Source: a virus
Lineage: Duplodnaviria; Heunggongvirae; Uroviricota; Caudoviricetes
Reading direction: 5' to 3' (one strand)
Virus record (IMG/VR): IMGVR_UViG_3300037467_000966
DNA length: 64,000 nt
In this document: in pieces, positions 5,426-64,000 of the stretch
How positions within the stretch are numbered: the stretch's first letter is position 1
How the letters are laid out: each line of letters opens with the position of its first letter
The notes under the pieces: generated by a model
Seen by the model: only the letters and a program-made list of their open reading frames with translations
Told to the model about the DNA's origin: nothing
Database searches by the model: none
Made by a program: the position numbers and the translations under genes

Positions 5426-5512
5426 TGGAGCTGCCAGGAGGATTCGAACCTCCGACCTCTCCCCGTCGATGTGGACTCTTGGGGGAGTATTCTACCGCTG
5501 AACTACAGCAGC
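5426..5512 (-). tRNA. tRNA-like gene with encoded CCA. Canonical acceptor, D and T arms, but a 19-nt anticodon loop (12-nt insertion). Anticodon possibly AAG if the insertion lies after position 37.
   Basis: Minus-strand read GCUGCUG-UA-GUUCAGCGGUAGAAU-A-CUCCC[19 nt]GGGAG-AGGUC-GGAGGUUCGAAUCCUCC-UGGCAGC-U-CCA. The 7-bp acceptor stem pairs (two GU), and the T loop UUCGAAU is canonical. Confidence 0.5.
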
Positions 5513-11445: not shown

Positions 11446-12044
11446 ACCATCACTCCTTGAATAAAAAAAATTCTTTACCCAATAGAAAGTACAAACAAGA
11501 TAGGATTCGAATCAGCGTGTGCATGCCCCAGGTTAGCAGCTAAAGGAAACCATAGGTTCCTCCACTCATCTAATACCTATCATTGATAAGAGAACGTCAG
11601 ACCAGGCTGGTAATTTCTAGGCATGCATTTAACCCCACCTGTACCATGAGGTCACCTACAACGTCTTGGAATTCTCTTATGCGTACTCTCTATTCAGTAA
11701 AGAATTTAAAAAGCTCCTTGGGCAGGAAGAAAATAAGATACAATCATAGGCTTCAGTGCTTACCATCCGACAGTGGGACTCGAACCCACACGCCTCTCGG
11801 CGGACAGAGCTATCTCCGTCTGCGTCTGCCAATTTCGCCATGCCCGATGGGGCTTACTTGGCACCTATGATATGGAGAAGAACTTCGGATTGGTGTCTAT
11901 TGCAGACCCCAGAAGGAATCGAACCAGCTACTTTCCGCTTATAGGCGGCTGTTTTACCCAATAAACTATGCGGGCCTCCACTACACCGTAGTTCCTGGCA
12001 TTCTTCTCATTCTTATTCTCTACCTGCCCAAAGAGCAAGTAACC

Positions 12045-18428: not shown

Positions 18429-19508
18429 TTAAGCTAATTTAATCACTAGCTTTGTGAAACGGGCACCTTTCGTACCAGCTTTCACGGTGAAACGAATCTC
18501 GTCGCCAACCACTTCGAATGTTGCATTCTTCAGTTCAGGGAAGATTTCGCTCATGGATGCCTGGATTTCTTCAGGCTTTAAGCTGTCGTCTTCCACGTTA
18601 AGGCGGTTAGAGCCGTATACAACGACTCTCGCACCTTTCGTACCAGCCTTAACAGTGAATCGGATTTCATCCCCAACAACTTCAAACGTTGCGTTTTTCA
18701 ACTCAGGAAAGATTTCAGACATGGAAGCCTGAATCTCTTCTGGTTTTAAGGAATCATCCTCAACATTTAAACGATTAGAACCATAAACAACTACGCGTGC
18801 CATACCTTTCGTCCCCGCTTTCACTGTGAATCGAATTTCATTTCCAACTACCTCGTAGGTAGCATTCTTCAACTCTGGAAAAATCTCAGACATAGATGCC
18901 TGGATTTCTGCTGGAGTCAAAGATGAGTCCTCTACATTCAGACGGTTTGAACCATACACAACAACTCTTGTCATACCTTTTGTACCTGCCTTTACTGTGA
19001 ATCGGATTTCGTTTCCTACTACTTCATACGTAGCATTTTTAAGCTCTGGGAAAATCTCGCTCATAGAAGCTTGAATCTCCGCTGGTGTTAAAGAAGAATC
19101 TTCAACATTCAAACGATTGGAGCCGTAAACAACCACGCGGGTCTGGCCTGAACCAGAACCCTTTGTGCCTGCTTTGACAGTGAAACGAATCTCATTGCCT
19201 ACGACTTCGAAAGTAGCGTTCTTAAGCTCAGGGAAAATCTCAGACATAGAAGCTTTGATTTCCTCTGGGCTTAAAGAATCATCCTCAACGTTTAAGCGGT
19301 TGGAACCGTATACCACAACGCGGGTAGCACCCTTCGTCCCAGCTTTAACTGTGAAGCGGATTTCGTTTCCAACGACTTCGTAAGTTGCATTCTTTAACTC
19401 AGGAAAAATTTCAGACATTGACGCTTGAATTTCTGCAGGTGTTAAAGAAGAATCCTCCACGTTAAGACGATTTGAACCATAAACCACTACTCTTGTTTGA
19501 TTAGACAT
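18429..19508 (-). CDS. Tandem hexa-repeat small-domain protein (6 x ~57 aa, each unit ending ...KAGTKG), candidate polyubiquitin-like precursor
   Basis: Six near-identical units (T)RVVVYGSNRLNVED(S/D)SL(T/K)P(A/E)EI(Q/K)ASMSEIFPELKNAT(Y/F)EVVG(N/D)EIRFTVKAGTKG. First gene of the operon that ends with E2-like, JAB and E1. Confidence 0.6.
   Translation of the reverse strand: MSNQTRVVVYGSNRLNVEDSSLTPAEIQASMSEIFPELKNATYEVVGNEIRFTVKAGTKGATRVVVYGSNRLNVEDDSLSPEEIKASMSEIFPELKNATFEVVGNEIRFTVKAGTKGSGSGQTRVVVYGSNRLNVEDSSLTPAEIQASMSEIFPELKNATYEVVGNEIRFTVKAGTKGMTRVVVYGSNRLNVEDSSLTPAEIQASMSEIFPELKNATYEVVGNEIRFTVKAGTKGMARVVVYGSNRLNVEDDSLKPEEIQASMSEIFPELKNATFEVVGDEIRFTVKAGTKGARVVVYGSNRLNVEDDSLKPEEIQASMSEIFPELKNATFEVVGDEIRFTVKAGTKGARFTKLVIKLA
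18462..19499 (-). repeat. Six tandem ~171-180 bp near-identical coding repeats
   Basis: DNA-level repetition is visible (e.g. gtgaaacgaatctcgtc/gccaac...cttcagttcaggg recurs with period ~171-180 bp). Confidence 0.85.
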
Positions 19509-31221: not shown

Positions 31222-31260
31222 CCCCCCAGAAAGCAGAAGGCCCCGAAGGGCCTACTCAGC
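31222..31260 (-). terminator. Hairpin (GGCCCCGAAGGGCC core) at the sigma-factor gene stop
   Basis: Extended stem agtaggccc/gggccttct around a UUCG loop on RNA. Weak U-tail. Confidence 0.45.
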
Positions 31261-32682
31261 TTCTACATTTAATGTGAATGTGATAGAACCGTTATTGCTT
31301 TCTTCAAGCATGCTAATCAGCTCTTTCATTTCAGCTACGAAATCTTCAGTTGGAACGTTCCCGCCCGAAGCATGATACTTAAATGTTAGAAGCTTTTGAA
31401 TCTTACCCATTGGTGATGTCTCTGTAGCAACGCTTTCAGCAGCCATCTCCTTGCGAACCTCTGCTTCAACTTCTGCACGAAGCTCGGCTTTGATTTCAGC
31501 CTTGAACTCTTCGATTGCTTCTGCCATATTCACAACAGGCTGTTCAGGCTTCTTGATTTCCACTTGCTCAACTTCATGTTTTACAACAGGCACTTGTTCT
31601 ACCAACCTTTCCTTGTCTTTTTCACCCATGAAAGCTGGATGATTAATCACTGGCGTTTCAACTGGTACTTCAATCTCCACCCGTTTCTTAGGTTCATTGA
31701 CCCATTTGTAATCGCCTTTCTCATATAAACGACGTAATCTGGTTAGACTACCTGTTGGGACACCTGTTTGTTTTGATATCTCTGCATAGGTATATTTACC
31801 TTCTGCCAACAACTGGACCGCTTTATCGGTGTCCCCGCTATGTTCACGAACCATGCCTGGATGATTAGTCATCTTTTCCTTCCGCACTTCTTTTGGACGG
31901 TGCTTCTGAGCATACGTTGCAATAGTGCTGTAAGGTACGCCTGTCTTTTCATTGATTTCTTTGTAAGACATCGTCGTTGTCTTTAACAAGTGAATAACTT
32001 CTTTCTTATTGGCTGGTGCAATTCCTCTAGCCATTTTCTCTTCATTCCTTTCTGCCTTAGCTTGATTAGACTCAATGGTCTTTTTTATTTTCTTCAATAT
32101 CTTTTTCTCTATCCTTGATATGTAGGACTGAGAGATATCGAGTGCCGCCGACACTTCCCGTTGTGTTTGATTTTGAAAGTAACGCATAAGAATAATATCT
32201 TTATCCCGTGGCGACAAGCCTTCCAATGCAGCTCGTACTTCAGCCATGGTATCGTTCCATTCAAACACTTCTGAGAAATGTTGGATGTTCTTATCAGGCG
32301 TGACATCCATCAAAGTTAATTCATGTCCATCTATATCCGTCGTTATCGGGCTGTCAATGGACGTTTCAGCTTTGATTTTCTTACCTTTCCGAAGGAACAT
32401 CAAGATTTCGTTGTCGATGCATCGTGAAGCGTATGTAGCAAACTTGACTTCCTTCTCTGTGTTAAAAGTATGAACAGCTTTAATCATACCGATTAATCCA
32501 ATACTAAACAAATCCTCTATGTCTAGTCCTGTGTTGTCATACTTTTTTGCAATATGCACTACCAACCTGAGATTACCTTCAATTACTTTCTCTTTAGCTT
32601 CCTCATCCCCCGCCTTGTATGCTCTAAGCAGCTCTAATGTTTCTGTAGGTTTTAGCGGTGGTGGCAAATCCATCATCGACAT
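31252..32682 (-). CDS. Phage-encoded sigma-70-family RNA polymerase sigma factor with long C-terminal extension carrying two HTH-like repeats
   Basis: Region 2 DLFSIGLIGMIKAVHTFNTEKEVKFATYASRCIDNEILMFLR. Region 4 TQREVSAALDISQSYISRIEKKILKK. Then repeats Y(K/A)EI(N/S)(E/K)(K/Q)TGVP... Confidence 0.85.
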   Translation of the reverse strand: MSMMDLPPPLKPTETLELLRAYKAGDEEAKEKVIEGNLRLVVHIAKKYDNTGLDIEDLFSIGLIGMIKAVHTFNTEKEVKFATYASRCIDNEILMFLRKGKKIKAETSIDSPITTDIDGHELTLMDVTPDKNIQHFSEVFEWNDTMAEVRAALEGLSPRDKDIILMRYFQNQTQREVSAALDISQSYISRIEKKILKKIKKTIESNQAKAERNEEKMARGIAPANKKEVIHLLKTTTMSYKEINEKTGVPYSTIATYAQKHRPKEVRKEKMTNHPGMVREHSGDTDKAVQLLAEGKYTYAEISKQTGVPTGSLTRLRRLYEKGDYKWVNEPKKRVEIEVPVETPVINHPAFMGEKDKERLVEQVPVVKHEVEQVEIKKPEQPVVNMAEAIEEFKAEIKAELRAEVEAEVRKEMAAESVATETSPMGKIQKLLTFKYHASGGNVPTEDFVAEMKELISMLEESNNGSITFTLNVEAE

Positions 32683-48710: not shown

Positions 48711-49174
48711 AACATCACCTCCTAATGGCGGGCGGGATTACCTTATGATTACAACATCACTATATAGTACAATAAGACATAGACAACTATATAGAGATAG
48801 ACCATATAGCATTACCCCATACAAGATAAGCTAATAGAACACCTAACCACATAGAAGTACCTATACCTAAACAAAACCATATAGCACATTTATTATAATT
48901 ATCCATACAACTTTCCTTTCATAGGTGTATTTTCCACTTTTACCTCTTATTATAGTACTTATGACTTTAGTCATTAGTCACCCATAATATAGGCACAAGG
49001 TACAAATAAATAAACATAACCTCTCAAACCCTTGGTACGCAAGGACTTTTTACTACCAGTACCCTCAAACATTCATTGTGTCTTACCTAGGCCCACTTTT
49101 AGTGTGTCCATTTGTTACCTTAAGGTTAAGTAAGTTACCATGACTTTATGACATCCAGAGAGAAAGGGAGTCAC

Positions 49175-49423
49175 CTACACGGCGCTCCCTATGCGTTCCT
49201 CTATATAGTCTCTGTCCATCTCCATCTCCATAGGATGGCTTATATAGTATTCCTCCAAGCGGCGGCGTATCTCCACTGGACCTTCTTCGGTATCACACTC
49301 TGGTAATACAGGGTCCTGTACTATATAGATATCATTGCCTATATAAGAGATGAATAGCCCGTCGGTGCCCAGTGTCATCCCTTCCTTTAATACATACATA
49401 CACTTATCAATAAACTCTTCCAT
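49175..49423 (-). CDS. Hypothetical protein inside the CTATATAG-rich spacer
   Basis: 82-aa ORF. Contains motif copies itself, so the call is uncertain. Confidence 0.4.
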   Translation of the reverse strand: MEEFIDKCMYVLKEGMTLGTDGLFISYIGNDIYIVQDPVLPECDTEEGPVEIRRRLEEYYISHPMEMEMDRDYIEERIGSAV

Positions 49424-49519
49424 TCTACCATTCCTCCTATATAGTACTACTTATGCCTATTAGCTAAATCATATAGCATTATGACACCACATATGAAAAA
49501 CAATGCCGCCACGTATAAC

Positions 49520-49612
49520 ACTCTATTCTATATAGTCTTCCTCTCCCTATATAGTTCCTGCTATATATACCATATACCTATATAGTACATGATACTCTCT
49601 ATATACATCCTA
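49520..49612. repeat. Array of CTATATAG-core repeats (5 copies, ~14-19 bp spacing)
   Basis: ctatatag at 49528, 49547, 49561, 49578 and 49597. Confidence 0.6.
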
Positions 49613-50059
49613 CCTATTAATTCAATTCAATTAATCAGGCGTAATACGCCCACCAGCGAAAGCCTCCTCTAAAGGGGTCCCCCCACAACTTCAACCAGCC
49701 GAAGGCGAATAGTCAGCCGAAGGCAGGTCCTCCTATATAGGGACTCCCACACCCTATTTGCATATGGCTCGCTCATCGCTCGCCATCGGGCTTGCACCTG
49801 CTACCGCAGGGTCCGATAAAGAACGGGGCCTCTATAGCTAAACGCTCCCCGCGTGCGTCGGCGCAACAAGTTCGAATCTTAAGGGTCCCCTTCCCATGCG
49901 TAAACTCCGTGACAGCTTCCCCCCATTCACTTGAACTTGTAACGCGCCTCCTACCAGTCAAGCTTGGCCTCGCTTCGCTCGGCGTATCGGGCGGGTATAT
50001 TCTCCAGCGTATATAGATAATGTATAAAACTAGCAGCCCATACAAGTAATCATCTCCCT

Positions 50060-50090
50060 ATATAGTAATAAAGGAGGCCGAAGCCCCCAT
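50060..50090 (-). terminator. Intrinsic terminator (RNA GGGGGC-UUCG-GCCUCC then U/A-rich)
   Basis: Immediately downstream of the 50099 stop. Confidence 0.5.
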
Positions 50091-50098
50091 GGTGACAA

Positions 50099-51319
50099 TT
50101 ACTCTGCTACAACTCCCCACATGTCAAGACCAGCATCATACTGAGCAATAGCCATGATTAATGCAAGAGTTTCACGAGGTACAACCAAGTTAGGAACAGT
50201 TTGGAATACCCAGTTGCCATCAAACTCCATATCCAAAGCGTGTGATACAGATACTTCAGCGTCAGCATGTTTCTTCTTGCAGCTTGTGCAGTATAGGTTA
50301 CCAGTGTTGCCTTTGAATTCTTTACCGCAAGTACAAGTAGCTTTCACATTGATTTCATTAGGTCTCCAGAAACCGAATGCAGGACGAAGGCCGTTCTTTG
50401 TATCCACCCATCCAATAGAAGTAGATGCAAGGTCAGAGCTAGAGTTAGCAGATGCATTCTTGATTGGGAACTCCAAGATGTTACCATTAGCTTTGATTTG
50501 GATTACCACAGTGATGTCTGGGTTGTTACGAGTACGAGACACTTCACTTGGGTCAACCAATACGATTTGCTCAATACCTAGTTCAGCATCAGACAATGTT
50601 TCAAGGATTCCTTCTAATCGGTTTAATACAGGGTATAGTTCAGCATTCAAGTACCAAGGGCCTTCAAACTTCTTGAATTCATTCTTGATTGATTCAGAGC
50701 GACCTAGACGACGACGACCTTCAGCAGCAGCAGGCTTAGTATTCTTTAGTACACGGCTAGTAGATTTACGGTTTGGTTTATTCATTTCAGTTTCCACCTT
50801 TTCATTAGTTGTAGTTTTAGTTTCTTTTACTTCAGCTTTCTTTTCTTCTTGTGTAGCAGCACCAGTATTTAAACGACGACGACCAGCAACCTTCTTTTCT
50901 TCTTGTTTCATTTCAACTTCCTCCTTAGTGTTTTCAACTTTGTTTGCATGTTTAGCCAAGAACTTTTGTGCAGCAGATGATTTAGCGATAGTAGCAGCTT
51001 TCTTTTCTTCAGGTGTAGATTCAACAGATACAGTGATTTCAGCAGTTTTAGTAGTTTTCATTAATTCCATCTCCTTAGTGTATGCTTGGTTTAGTACAGC
51101 AGCGATTGCATTAGCAACATTGATATCATCAGATACTACAGCGATGGACTTCTCTCCGCCGTTGATAGCTTCCATCACATACATATCAACAGCTTCTTCA
51201 AGTCCGTTCTTGCCCTCAGCAGTAAAGTTGTTAACAGTCATTTGGAAGTCTTCAACAAGAACATCAACACCAGCTTTAACATCTTCAGTAGTTGCTACGA
51301 ATTTTACAAATTTAGTCAT
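50099..51319 (-). CDS. Hypothetical abundant-looking protein: N-terminal domain, K/E-rich linker, C-terminal CxxC...CxxC zinc ribbon
   Basis: 406-aa ORF bracketed by terminators. CTCGKEFKGNTGNLYCTSCKK. Confidence 0.7.
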   Translation of the reverse strand: MTKFVKFVATTEDVKAGVDVLVEDFQMTVNNFTAEGKNGLEEAVDMYVMEAINGGEKSIAVVSDDINVANAIAAVLNQAYTKEMELMKTTKTAEITVSVESTPEEKKAATIAKSSAAQKFLAKHANKVENTKEEVEMKQEEKKVAGRRRLNTGAATQEEKKAEVKETKTTTNEKVETEMNKPNRKSTSRVLKNTKPAAAEGRRRLGRSESIKNEFKKFEGPWYLNAELYPVLNRLEGILETLSDAELGIEQIVLVDPSEVSRTRNNPDITVVIQIKANGNILEFPIKNASANSSSDLASTSIGWVDTKNGLRPAFGFWRPNEINVKATCTCGKEFKGNTGNLYCTSCKKKHADAEVSVSHALDMEFDGNWVFQTVPNLVVPRETLALIMAIAQYDAGLDMWGVVAE

Positions 51320-51354
51320 GATTAATTACCATCCTTATTATTAGTTATAGTTTT

Positions 51355-61571: not shown

Positions 61572-61605
61572 TTTATATAAATAAAGAGAGGCCCGAAGAC
61601 CTCCC
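61572..61605 (-). terminator. Intrinsic terminator (RNA GAGGUC-UUCG-GGCCUC then UCUUUAUUUAU)
   Basis: gagaggcccgaagacctc after the 61613 stop. Confidence 0.65.
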
Positions 61606-63115: not shown

Positions 63116-63619
63116 TTAAGAATCCCCGTCCCAATTGAAATTAAAGGTAATGCTGCGAGGACTAGACGGGAGCTGAGTACGCTCGTATCTAGCAACCTCA
63201 TAAGACATGGCTTTAAGCATACTTTCATGAATGCTCATATCAAAGTGCCAGTTAATCTCTTCTTCCACATAGATGTCTTCACTTAAGCCATAGTAGTAAG
63301 TATCAATGTCAGTATCTACTTGACCAGCTTTATATCCTCTAGCTCGTGACCTTCCACCAAGCAAGTAATCATTAGGGTTTACTAGGAAACCATTTTCTGC
63401 AGGAATACGAATACGGCGGTGCTGGATAAAACCATTTGTGTTATTTGCATAAACAAGAGCAGTAGCATAAGATGTAGAAAACCAAGAAATACCTTCAAGA
63501 TTATCAGTATCAGAACCACGGAAGATATCGAAAACATACCAGCCTTCAGAATCAACAGTGTAAACAGGTTCAGTAGAAAGCATTAATTCAGCAGATGGTT
63601 TATCTAAAACTTTTAACAT
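63116..63619 (-). CDS. Hypothetical protein
   Basis: 167-aa ORF. Confidence 0.55.
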   Translation of the reverse strand: MLKVLDKPSAELMLSTEPVYTVDSEGWYVFDIFRGSDTDNLEGISWFSTSYATALVYANNTNGFIQHRRIRIPAENGFLVNPNDYLLGGRSRARGYKAGQVDTDIDTYYYGLSEDIYVEEEINWHFDMSIHESMLKAMSYEVARYERTQLPSSPRSITFNFNWDGDS

Positions 63620-63861
63620 TATAAAACTTCCTTTCCAATTAAAATATTTTGTTTGTACATTTCAGAATCAGCGGGCAATTCTACCCAAGAAATTAAACCT
63701 TCGATTTTTGATTCTTTTCTTTTTTCGAAATTAACTTGCTTGATTTTGCTTGAAGAATCTGAGTAGTAATCTTGGTACATTTTTTCAATGCGTTTTCTTA
63801 GAAGTTCGTTTTTCATTTTCTTTTCCTCTTTTCTAGTTGTAGGTTTTTTATGTAAACACAA
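63619..63861 (-). CDS. Hypothetical protein, first gene after the CCCC-TTATATAG array
   Basis: 80-aa ORF. Confidence 0.5.
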   Translation of the reverse strand: MCLHKKPTTRKEEKKMKNELLRKRIEKMYQDYYSDSSSKIKQVNFEKRKESKIEGLISWVELPADSEMYKQNILIGKEVL

Positions 63862-63961
63862 ATATAGGAGGCCCTATATAGGACCCCCCCCTTATATAGA
63901 CCCCCCTTATAGGAAGGCCCCTTATATAGCACCCCTTATATAGAGGCCCTACTATATAGCA
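63861..63961. repeat. Phased array of 6-7 CCCC-TTATATAG units (period 14-18 bp) directly upstream of the structural-type operon
   Basis: TATATAG at 63875, 63893, (TTATAGG 63907), 63923, 63937 and 63953, each preceded by a C-run. Confidence 0.7.
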
Positions 63962-64000
63962 CCCTTTGCTAGCTGCTTCTTGTAGTAGGCCACAGTAGCC

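Follow-up and report, generated by a model that had tools for sequence, protein, structure and literature searches.

Intrinsic (Rho-independent) terminators and attenuators are the closest described counterparts of the repeat array analyzed here, which lies near one end of a 64,000-nucleotide stretch of DNA (hereafter, the window) from a tailed phage. RNase III processing hairpins also occur between genes in phage early transcripts, as in T7 and the Bacillus phage SP82, and the PeSL cassettes of T4-type phages, each composed of a stem-loop and an early promoter, are repeated between small ORFs. Tandem short sites furthermore occur as the met-boxes of MetJ and the heptads of omega, which are bound by ribbon-helix-helix repressors, and as the iterons of the lambda origin, where repeated two-fold symmetric units lie beside an A+T-rich stretch.

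The array resembles an intrinsic terminator in having a G+C-rich sense-strand stem-loop after a stop codon with a T-rich tail, in keeping the position of the hairpin across lineages while the stem changes, and in a module layout that matches that of the surrounding gene string; it differs in that the hairpin is reiterated about seven times, has a TATATA rather than a UUCG loop, and is followed by an interrupted U-tract. Like the RNase III hairpins of T7 and SP82, it is predicted to form long imperfect intergenic RNA hairpins, although its helices are tandem copies of a short self-complementary word and the likeness is one of predicted fold only. As with PeSLs, a hairpin with a TATA-rich, promoter-like word recurs among small fast-changing ORFs, and copy number varies in close relatives. 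PeSLs, however, are scattered, one per gap, with a full sigma-70 promoter, whereas the copies of the array follow one another head to tail, uninterrupted by ORFs, and lack a -35 element. With the MetJ, omega and lambda sites the array shares consecutive two-fold symmetric short words and a ribbon-helix-helix (RHH_3) gene in its vicinity, but its period of 13-18 bp corresponds neither to contiguous 7-8 bp boxes nor to whole helical turns, and it lacks a recognizable overlapping promoter, conservation in relatives and an adjacent initiator gene.

Anatomy and genomic setting of the array

The features at the array are as follows, all on the minus strand, which is the sense strand of the surrounding genes.

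63952-64000, minus strand: 3' end of the upstream 55-aa ORF, which runs off the window (9502-9669 in contig L001)
63860-63964, minus strand: the whole repeat array (sequence reading; Tandem Repeats Finder periods 15 and 30)
63884-63891, minus strand: G8 tract, C8 on the plus strand (comparison of assemblies)
63866-63891, minus strand: terminal hairpin GGGGGG(G)TCC-TATATA-GGGCCTCC(T), unit 6 and the start of unit 7 (terminator scan, our own scan and alignment)
63826-63865, minus strand: T-rich tail, then box TATATTTGTGTTTACATAAAAAACCTACAACTAG (side-by-side reading of modules)
~63821-63831, minus strand: ribosome-binding site AAGAGGAAAAG of the 65-aa ORF (sequence reading)
63619-63816, minus strand: downstream 65-aa ORF (gene-called at 65 aa in L002, L004 and L005)

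An earlier sequence-only reading had noted a phased array of C-run units in this place, and both direct reading and Tandem Repeats Finder confirm the repeat, which on the sense strand consists of seven units of CTATATA(A/G) and a G-run spaced by 13-18 bp and on the plus strand appears as C-tracts, each followed by TTATATAG or a variant. The first C of the CTATA core lies at 63959, 63943, 63929, 63912, 63899, 63881 and 63867 in units 1-7, corresponding to spacings of 16, 14, 17, 13, 18 and 14 bp. Five of the seven units have the core CTATATA(A/G), with CTATAA in unit 4 and CTATATT in unit 7; G-runs of 3-8 bases follow units 1-6, and a T-rich tail follows unit 7. Tandem Repeats Finder reports 4-5 copies at period 15 and, with a higher score, 2.4 copies at period 30 (81% matches, score 84), so the array can also be described as ~3.5 copies of a two-unit repeat.

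The array core CTATATAG is an 8-bp palindrome found 12 times in the window against 0.87 expected, a ~14-fold over-representation that none of 100 shuffles reached. None of the 12 copies falls outside two places, the array and a second cluster (48760-50065) for which 10 are listed; likewise, of 20 sense-strand CTATATA words in the window, five are in the array and 12 in this one other 1.3-kb cluster. The longer word CCCTTATATAG of the sequence-only reading has four matches against 0.73 expected, a count reached in 2 of 100 shuffles, and its enrichment taken alone is poor evidence for a repeat. That reading had also named equal frequency of the motif in coding sequence as the mark of a compositional artifact. 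The enrichment of CTATATAG and its restriction to two places indicate a specific element instead.

Several observations fit an unstable repeat. The tract at 63884-63891 is G8 in the window but G7 in L001 and L002, which are other assemblies of the same phage, a difference that may represent true slippage or a homopolymer sequencing problem. In addition, three short contigs (L003-L005) begin within the array, L004 and L005 of them just downstream of the G8 tract, and one of the three was found in 8 samples.

All genes of the window are on the minus strand, and the window ends at 64000, 36 bases past the array, which accounts for the earlier impression that the array stands 5' of the first gene of an operon. 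This placement does not hold. A 147-kb metagenome contig, L001, present in JGI 3300038443 as Ga0395901_0000065, which by protein look-up carries the same sequence as the window, has same-strand genes extending ~1.8 kb further upstream of the array, up to a divergence region, and the stop codon TAG of the 55-aa ORF (63954-63952) lies inside array unit 1. The array is thus the filling of a ~145-bp spacer between the 55-aa and the 65-aa ORF, with ~35 nt between its last hairpin and the ribosome-binding site of the latter. Nor does anything show the downstream genes to be of structural type, as had been supposed: nine of the first ten proteins of this 13.7-kb gene string have no PHROG match, and the large terminase, which contains an intein, is encoded on the opposite strand beyond the divergence region and outside the window. 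The terminase module is ~7 kb from the array.

The gene content of the phage includes a DnaE-type polymerase (~60 kb from the array), a sigma-70-type factor, NAMPT and a CCA-adding enzyme. Among cultured phages it is closest to KLEB27-3, WH1 and Edson, which are large phages of Bacillus, with 59-66% amino-acid identity in terminase and polymerase. The sigma factor (31252-32682, minus strand, 476 aa) has extra helix-turn-helix domains past region 4, at about residues 287-323, and matches the sigma factor of Bacillus phage Goe8 best, at 33% identity. Proteins of the window are also found on a 526-kb contig besides the 147-kb one, and the cultured relatives measure 217-234 kb.

Terminator modules, related spacers and RNA folding

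The terminal hairpin of the array has 10 pairs, six of them G-C, and GGGGGGTCCTATATAGGGCCTCCT followed by ATATTTGTGT is the top terminator-like site in 4 kb by a consensus terminator scan. The locus therefore has the G+C-rich sense-strand stem-loop of an intrinsic terminator, with the stop codon of the preceding ORF inside unit 1. The usual terminators of this phage are strikingly uniform, with G+C stems of 6-10 bp and a UUCG tetraloop, and our own scan found at least 12 of them in the window:

61605, 60666, 54789, 51392, 50088, 44303, 36794, 7670, 6659, 3450 and others, minus strand: UUCG terminators

Those at 61605 and 51392 are followed by TTTAT..., a ATAAAAAAC-TA-AACTA box and a ribosome-binding site, and the box TATATTTGTGTTTACATAAAAAACCTACAACTAG located downstream of the array also follows both of them. 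The last array hairpin has the same layout of hairpin, tail and ATAAAAAAC-TA-AACTA box, and on this comparison the array appears to end in a copy of the standard intergenic module of the gene string, with the TATATA loop in place of the usual UUCG making its hairpin a special case. The tail TATATTTGTGTTT is accepted by a rule of five T in eight bases but is interrupted (UAUAUUUGUGUUU). Related lineages have better U-tracts, as in contig L020 (TTTTGTTTT), and the tract is nearly missing after the long hairpin of another relative, L129; the interruption here and the near absence in L129 make efficient termination doubtful.

Several UUCG terminators within the string from 63.8 to 50.1 kb are 40-50 nt from the next ribosome-binding site, which leaves no space for a standard promoter, and this string may rely on partial termination, anti-termination or RNA processing. 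Three tRNA-like genes (5426-5512 and 11764-11976, minus strand), of which the first directly follows a UUCG terminator, have odd or undetermined anticodon loops according to ARAGORN, and two of the three are confirmed as tRNA by Rfam.

Homologs of the neighboring proteins identified four further lineages with the same gene order, and the equivalent spacer was read in each.

Window, L001 and L002: seven-unit array
L129: degenerate array of 5-6 units (GCTCTATACAAGGG, CCTCTATATAAGTA, CCTCTGTATAAGGGGG and so on)
L127 and L128: one hairpin, GGGGGTCC-TACATA-GGGCCTC, then TTTATTTAT
L019-L024: one hairpin, GGTCC-CTTTAT-GGGGCC, then TTTTGTTTT
L013-L018: one hairpin with an unrelated 9-bp stem, then TTTAT

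In three of the five lineages, a single hairpin with a T-rich tail occupies the position of the array, and the array itself is therefore not conserved. The stems differ (L013 versus L127 versus L020), yet hairpin and T-rich tail are retained, and the tail with the box TATATTTGTGTTTACATAAAAAACCTACAACTAG is partly conserved in L020, L127, L129 and L013. In a multiple alignment that included L127, L020 and L129, the single hairpins align with the last full array unit, suggesting that the ancestral element was one terminator-like hairpin; judged from these alignments, the extra units would be expansions specific to two lineages, that of the window and that of L129.

The syntenic regions of the cultured phages KLEB27-3 and WH1 have no comparable tandem array. 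DNA comparison with the phage collection, for close as well as remote similarity, returned no match for the array region or the second cluster, and the neighboring 167-aa protein had none in viral and JGI metagenome collections, which seem to be without these samples. Scanning IMG/VR for three CTATATAG copies at most 30 bp apart gave 100 stretches on unrelated contigs, including giant viruses, one of which shares a protein with the window, the generic CCA-adding enzyme. A literature search for the motif and the nearest cultured phages yielded nothing usable.

Computed RNA folding of the array is biased to the sense strand. The 121-nt array of the window folds with -47 kcal/mol (z -2.9) as sense RNA and with -28.5 kcal/mol (z -1.9) as antisense RNA, and the corresponding values in a 171-nt context are -57.9 and -43.7 kcal/mol; for the L129 array they are -39.9 (z -4.8) and -29.5 kcal/mol. 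In L129, the sense RNA has one dominant hairpin of ~34 bp, making up 26% of the ensemble, whose pairing extends through the inter-unit spacers and uses G-U pairs; these are unavailable in antisense RNA or DNA, so that the predicted structure is specific to the sense strand. The array of the window has two predicted helices of ~17-20 bp and no dominant fold, its best structure accounting for 0.2-1.3% of the ensemble with many competitors. Double-stranded RNA of at least ~20 bp in an intergenic spacer, as expected of an RNase III-type site, is thus predicted in silico, with ~34 bp in L129 and two helices of ~17-20 bp in the window. Since good folding is a general property of tandem repeats with palindromes in them, the z-scores in part restate the repeat. 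A strand bias of this kind, which comes from G-U pairs, would be expected for a structure selected in the transcript, and the much better folding of the sense strand points to an element acting at the RNA level.

Our preferred explanation, to which we assign a probability of roughly 40%, is that the array is an intergenic terminator/RNA-hairpin element in which a self-complementary C-TATATA-G unit has been multiplied by tandem duplication. The ancestral spacer would have contained one G+C-stemmed hairpin with a T-rich tail, serving as an intrinsic terminator or attenuator between the first small genes of the string and the 65-aa gene with ~13.7 kb downstream of it. In the lineage of the window, the hairpin region would have been duplicated in tandem, presumably by slippage, to ~3.5 x 30 bp or 7 x 15 bp. 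The unit core C-UAUAUA-G, being self-complementary, could pair with itself and the G-runs with C/U-rich stretches through G-U pairs, such that two hairpins of ~17-20 bp, or a single longer one, would form in the sense transcript, with the terminator hairpin at the end. Likely effects would be reduced or insulated read-through into the downstream genes, and either a stable 3' end or a double-stranded RNA site for RNase III-type processing. If this explanation is correct, the locus would be a natural example of a terminator hairpin duplicated into a multi-hairpin element, with copy number varying between close relatives and G-run length between strains, and would bear on how large Bacillus-type phages tune expression in their rapidly changing early regions; in kind it would be unsurprising, a variant of known intergenic phage elements. 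It leaves the shared and conserved 8-mer at 48.76-50.07 kb without explanation.

The second cluster and the upstream control region

Two features define the second locus.

48760-50065, minus strand: second cluster of the 8-mer, with 10 CTATATAG plus variants and 12 CTATATA (motif counts)
49615-50009, minus strand: candidate non-coding RNA of ~395 nt, G+C-rich (also at L125 11285-11684 and L126 2354-2749)

The motif is all that relates this cluster to the array. The cluster is also present in the relatives L125 and L126, whose neighboring 406-aa protein is 77% identical, and its consensus, (T)A-CTATATAG-G.AGA, taken over 33 sites of three lineages, is directional and has sense-strand orientation throughout, with no -35 signal upstream of these 33 copies. 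Individual copies are located right after a UUCG terminator, before ribosome-binding sites, inside the candidate RNA and inside an 82-aa ORF. Three diverged lineages share, without a single difference, a 33-nt block, CAGGAACTATATAGGGAGAGGAAGACTATATAG (49560-49528), which contains two sites at a distance of 19 bp. Taken at the level of sequence, this pattern looks like specific recognition by a protein or a polymerase.

The 82-aa ORF (49175-49423, minus strand) encodes a protein conserved in L125 and L126 and contains four motif copies, each read as Tyr-Ile; copies within this ORF were gained and lost among the lineages. An unusually long antisense reading frame of 396 aa (50154-51344, plus strand) covers nearly all of the 406-aa gene (50099-51319) and is probably a by-product of codon composition. 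Contig L001 ends inside the cluster, at a point mapping to about position 49490 of the window. That the two clusters, ~14 kb apart, are the edges of a long terminal repeat of the SPO1 type was considered and rejected: several contigs run through the second cluster, one relative has the second cluster without the array, and the end of L001 at this place is not evidence for such a repeat.

The ~395-nt block is nearly identical across the three lineages, against 77% identity of the neighboring 406-aa protein. Its insertions and deletions fall in predicted loops, it contains two GCCUUCGGC hairpins, and its consensus fold of -87.6 kcal/mol includes six pairs with compensating changes; a terminator and an invariant TACTATATAGG lie on its 5' side. 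Rfam gave no match to the block at E-values up to 1, it is not called as a tmRNA, and blastn does not match it to known phages; an Rfam search of the whole second cluster at the same limit gave a chance snoRNA match only. We regard the block as a candidate for a so far undescribed phage RNA, large and structured.

A conserved non-coding control region is located upstream of the gene string, just past the end of the window.

L001 8410-8870: control region in the phage of the window
L127 7985-8286, L129 2810-3132, L020 4495-4805, L130 8060-8392 and KLEB27-3 215480-215800: control region in relatives

The region is composed, in this order, of a GAAC-N4-GTTC inverted repeat with variable spacer, which we take to resemble a Bacillus LexA box or SinR half-site, a C(T/C)TTATATAGAG element, a promoter-like TTTGCA-16-TAAAAT site, and a conserved leader of ~190 nt with two CCCACCCC boxes and a hairpin with compensating stem changes; partial conservation of the region extends even to KLEB27-3, a cultured phage. 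An array-like unit in opposite orientation, CTCTATATAAG, adjoins the inverted repeat and is intact in L001, L020, L130 and L129 but degenerate or absent in the remaining lineages. Just upstream of the control region is a 51-aa RHH_3 gene (L001 8261-8413), which is also present in the lineages in which this stretch was read, lineages without the array among them, and in KLEB27-3.

Alternative explanations

The second cluster bears most directly on the possibility of an operator-like DNA array, in which a dimeric phage protein would recognize CTATATAG, coat the seven sites to block or tune downstream transcription, and bind at 48.76-50.07 kb as well. The perfect palindromic core, enriched 14-fold in two clusters only, the occurrence of second-cluster sites in every context (after a terminator, in the candidate RNA, before a ribosome-binding site and in the 82-aa ORF), the identity of the 33-nt block with its two sites in three lineages, and the CTCTATATAAG unit kept intact beside the GAAC-N4-GTTC repeat in four lineages are all consistent with such a protein, for which the small RHH_3 protein encoded by a conserved gene ~1.3 kb upstream of the array, just beyond the window, is a candidate. 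We nevertheless consider it unlikely. The L125/L127 lineage retains the second cluster and would therefore retain the regulator, yet has one imperfect site, CTACATAG, at the position of the array; three of the seven array units (CTATATAA) are not palindromic; and adjacent sites, being 13-18 bp apart, face opposite sides of the helix. The directional flanks of the second cluster (A before, G.AGA after) are not what a symmetric operator predicts. In L129, complementarity continues through the inter-unit spacers. The AbrB-like protein proposed as a binder in the sequence-only reading was not found by sequence pattern or in a Pfam search of ten small ORFs, and a promoter scan predicted no sigma-70-like promoter in or beside the array that the sites could overlap or flank. 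The array being inside a run of genes and folding preferentially as sense RNA, the earlier idea of an operator at the head of an operon is not favored. The same directional consensus, (T)A-CTATATAG-G.AGA, without -35 and at 33 sites in three lineages, could instead denote phage-specific promoters of the T4 late or T7 type, each CTATATA(A/G)G starting transcription at its G-run to give a strong multi-start cluster; the motif is found right after terminators and right before ribosome-binding sites or start codons (e.g., CTATATAGGAGGAAGACAACATG) and the candidate RNA, and TATAGGGAGA has what we take to be a resemblance, and a resemblance only, to the start region of T7-class promoters. Promoters of this class would hardly be confined to two loci in 74 kb of genome and missing from ~30 other intergenic gaps, or occur four times within one 82-aa ORF, and a -10-type element directly adjoining GGAGG, as the motif does in places, would start transcription past the ribosome-binding site. 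The one transcription factor seen is of the sigma-70 type; having regions 2 and 4, it would be expected to require a -35, and a single-subunit RNA polymerase was not encountered in the sequence read, which is at most half of the genome. The units of the array are without the TA that precedes the core in the consensus, and units 13-18 bp apart could not be occupied simultaneously. On balance, we judge promoters improbable. In a broader version, which has a small chance of being right, CTATATAG would belong to a regulatory system peculiar to this phage group and be recognized either by a dimeric protein that binds DNA or RNA or by a modified, -35-independent polymerase. Such a system would jointly control the ~395-nt RNA (50009-49615) with the small genes surrounding it and also the beginning of the 13.7-kb string, and the array would serve it as a high-capacity landing pad or sink.

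Other alternatives concern the array alone. Its last hairpin may be the functional part, acting as a terminator, with the remaining units being recent slippage duplications without function. The absence of the array from three of five lineages, the ~80% self-identity of the 30-bp super-repeat, the G7/G8 difference and the contig breaks within the array would all agree with this, but expanded versions are present in two diverged lineages, the sequence of L129 has drifted while a near-perfect long hairpin was kept (z -4.8), suggesting structural selection, and the repeated core is an 8-mer conserved elsewhere; we find it rather improbable that the additional units are without function. Iterons of a replication origin or a packaging site, also put forward in the sequence-only reading, would suit a layout like that of the lambda origin and a position ~1.8 kb from the point of gene divergence and ~7 kb from the terminase module. 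They are very improbable in view of the single hairpin found in three of the five lineages, the lack of a comparable array in the syntenic regions of KLEB27-3 and WH1, the position of the array within a run of genes, and a last unit that matches the terminator modules of the string. Furthermore, no replication initiator or small terminase was recognized beside the array, where the neighboring ORFs have no recognizable domains, DnaE is ~60 kb away, and the cumulative GC skew is monotonic without a turn across the window, at the edge of which the array lies and in which all genes are on one strand. Hardly more probable is that the sense RNA or the non-template DNA strand forms a G-quadruplex that would cause a pause or block translation. 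With seven G-runs (3-8 bases each), all of them on one strand, the array is the highest G4Hunter peak of the whole window (2.2, in 25-nt windows), but the loops between the runs are 9-13 nt long, above the 7 nt allowed in canonical quadruplexes of at least four G-runs of at least three bases; L129 and the single-hairpin lineages have fewer G-runs, and hairpin pairing occupies the same G bases.

Whichever explanation applies to the array, the more valuable lead is that its palindrome marks a second conserved locus holding the ~395-nt block without Rfam match. A short cis-element common to the array and this block would be an experimental handle on regulation in a phage group that has no cultured close relative.

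Lastly, the window contains another tandem repeat at 18633-19484, with 4.9 copies of a 171-bp unit at 72% identity. It lies inside a 359-aa ORF (18429-19508), the product of which would thus be a protein with repeated domains of ~57 residues.
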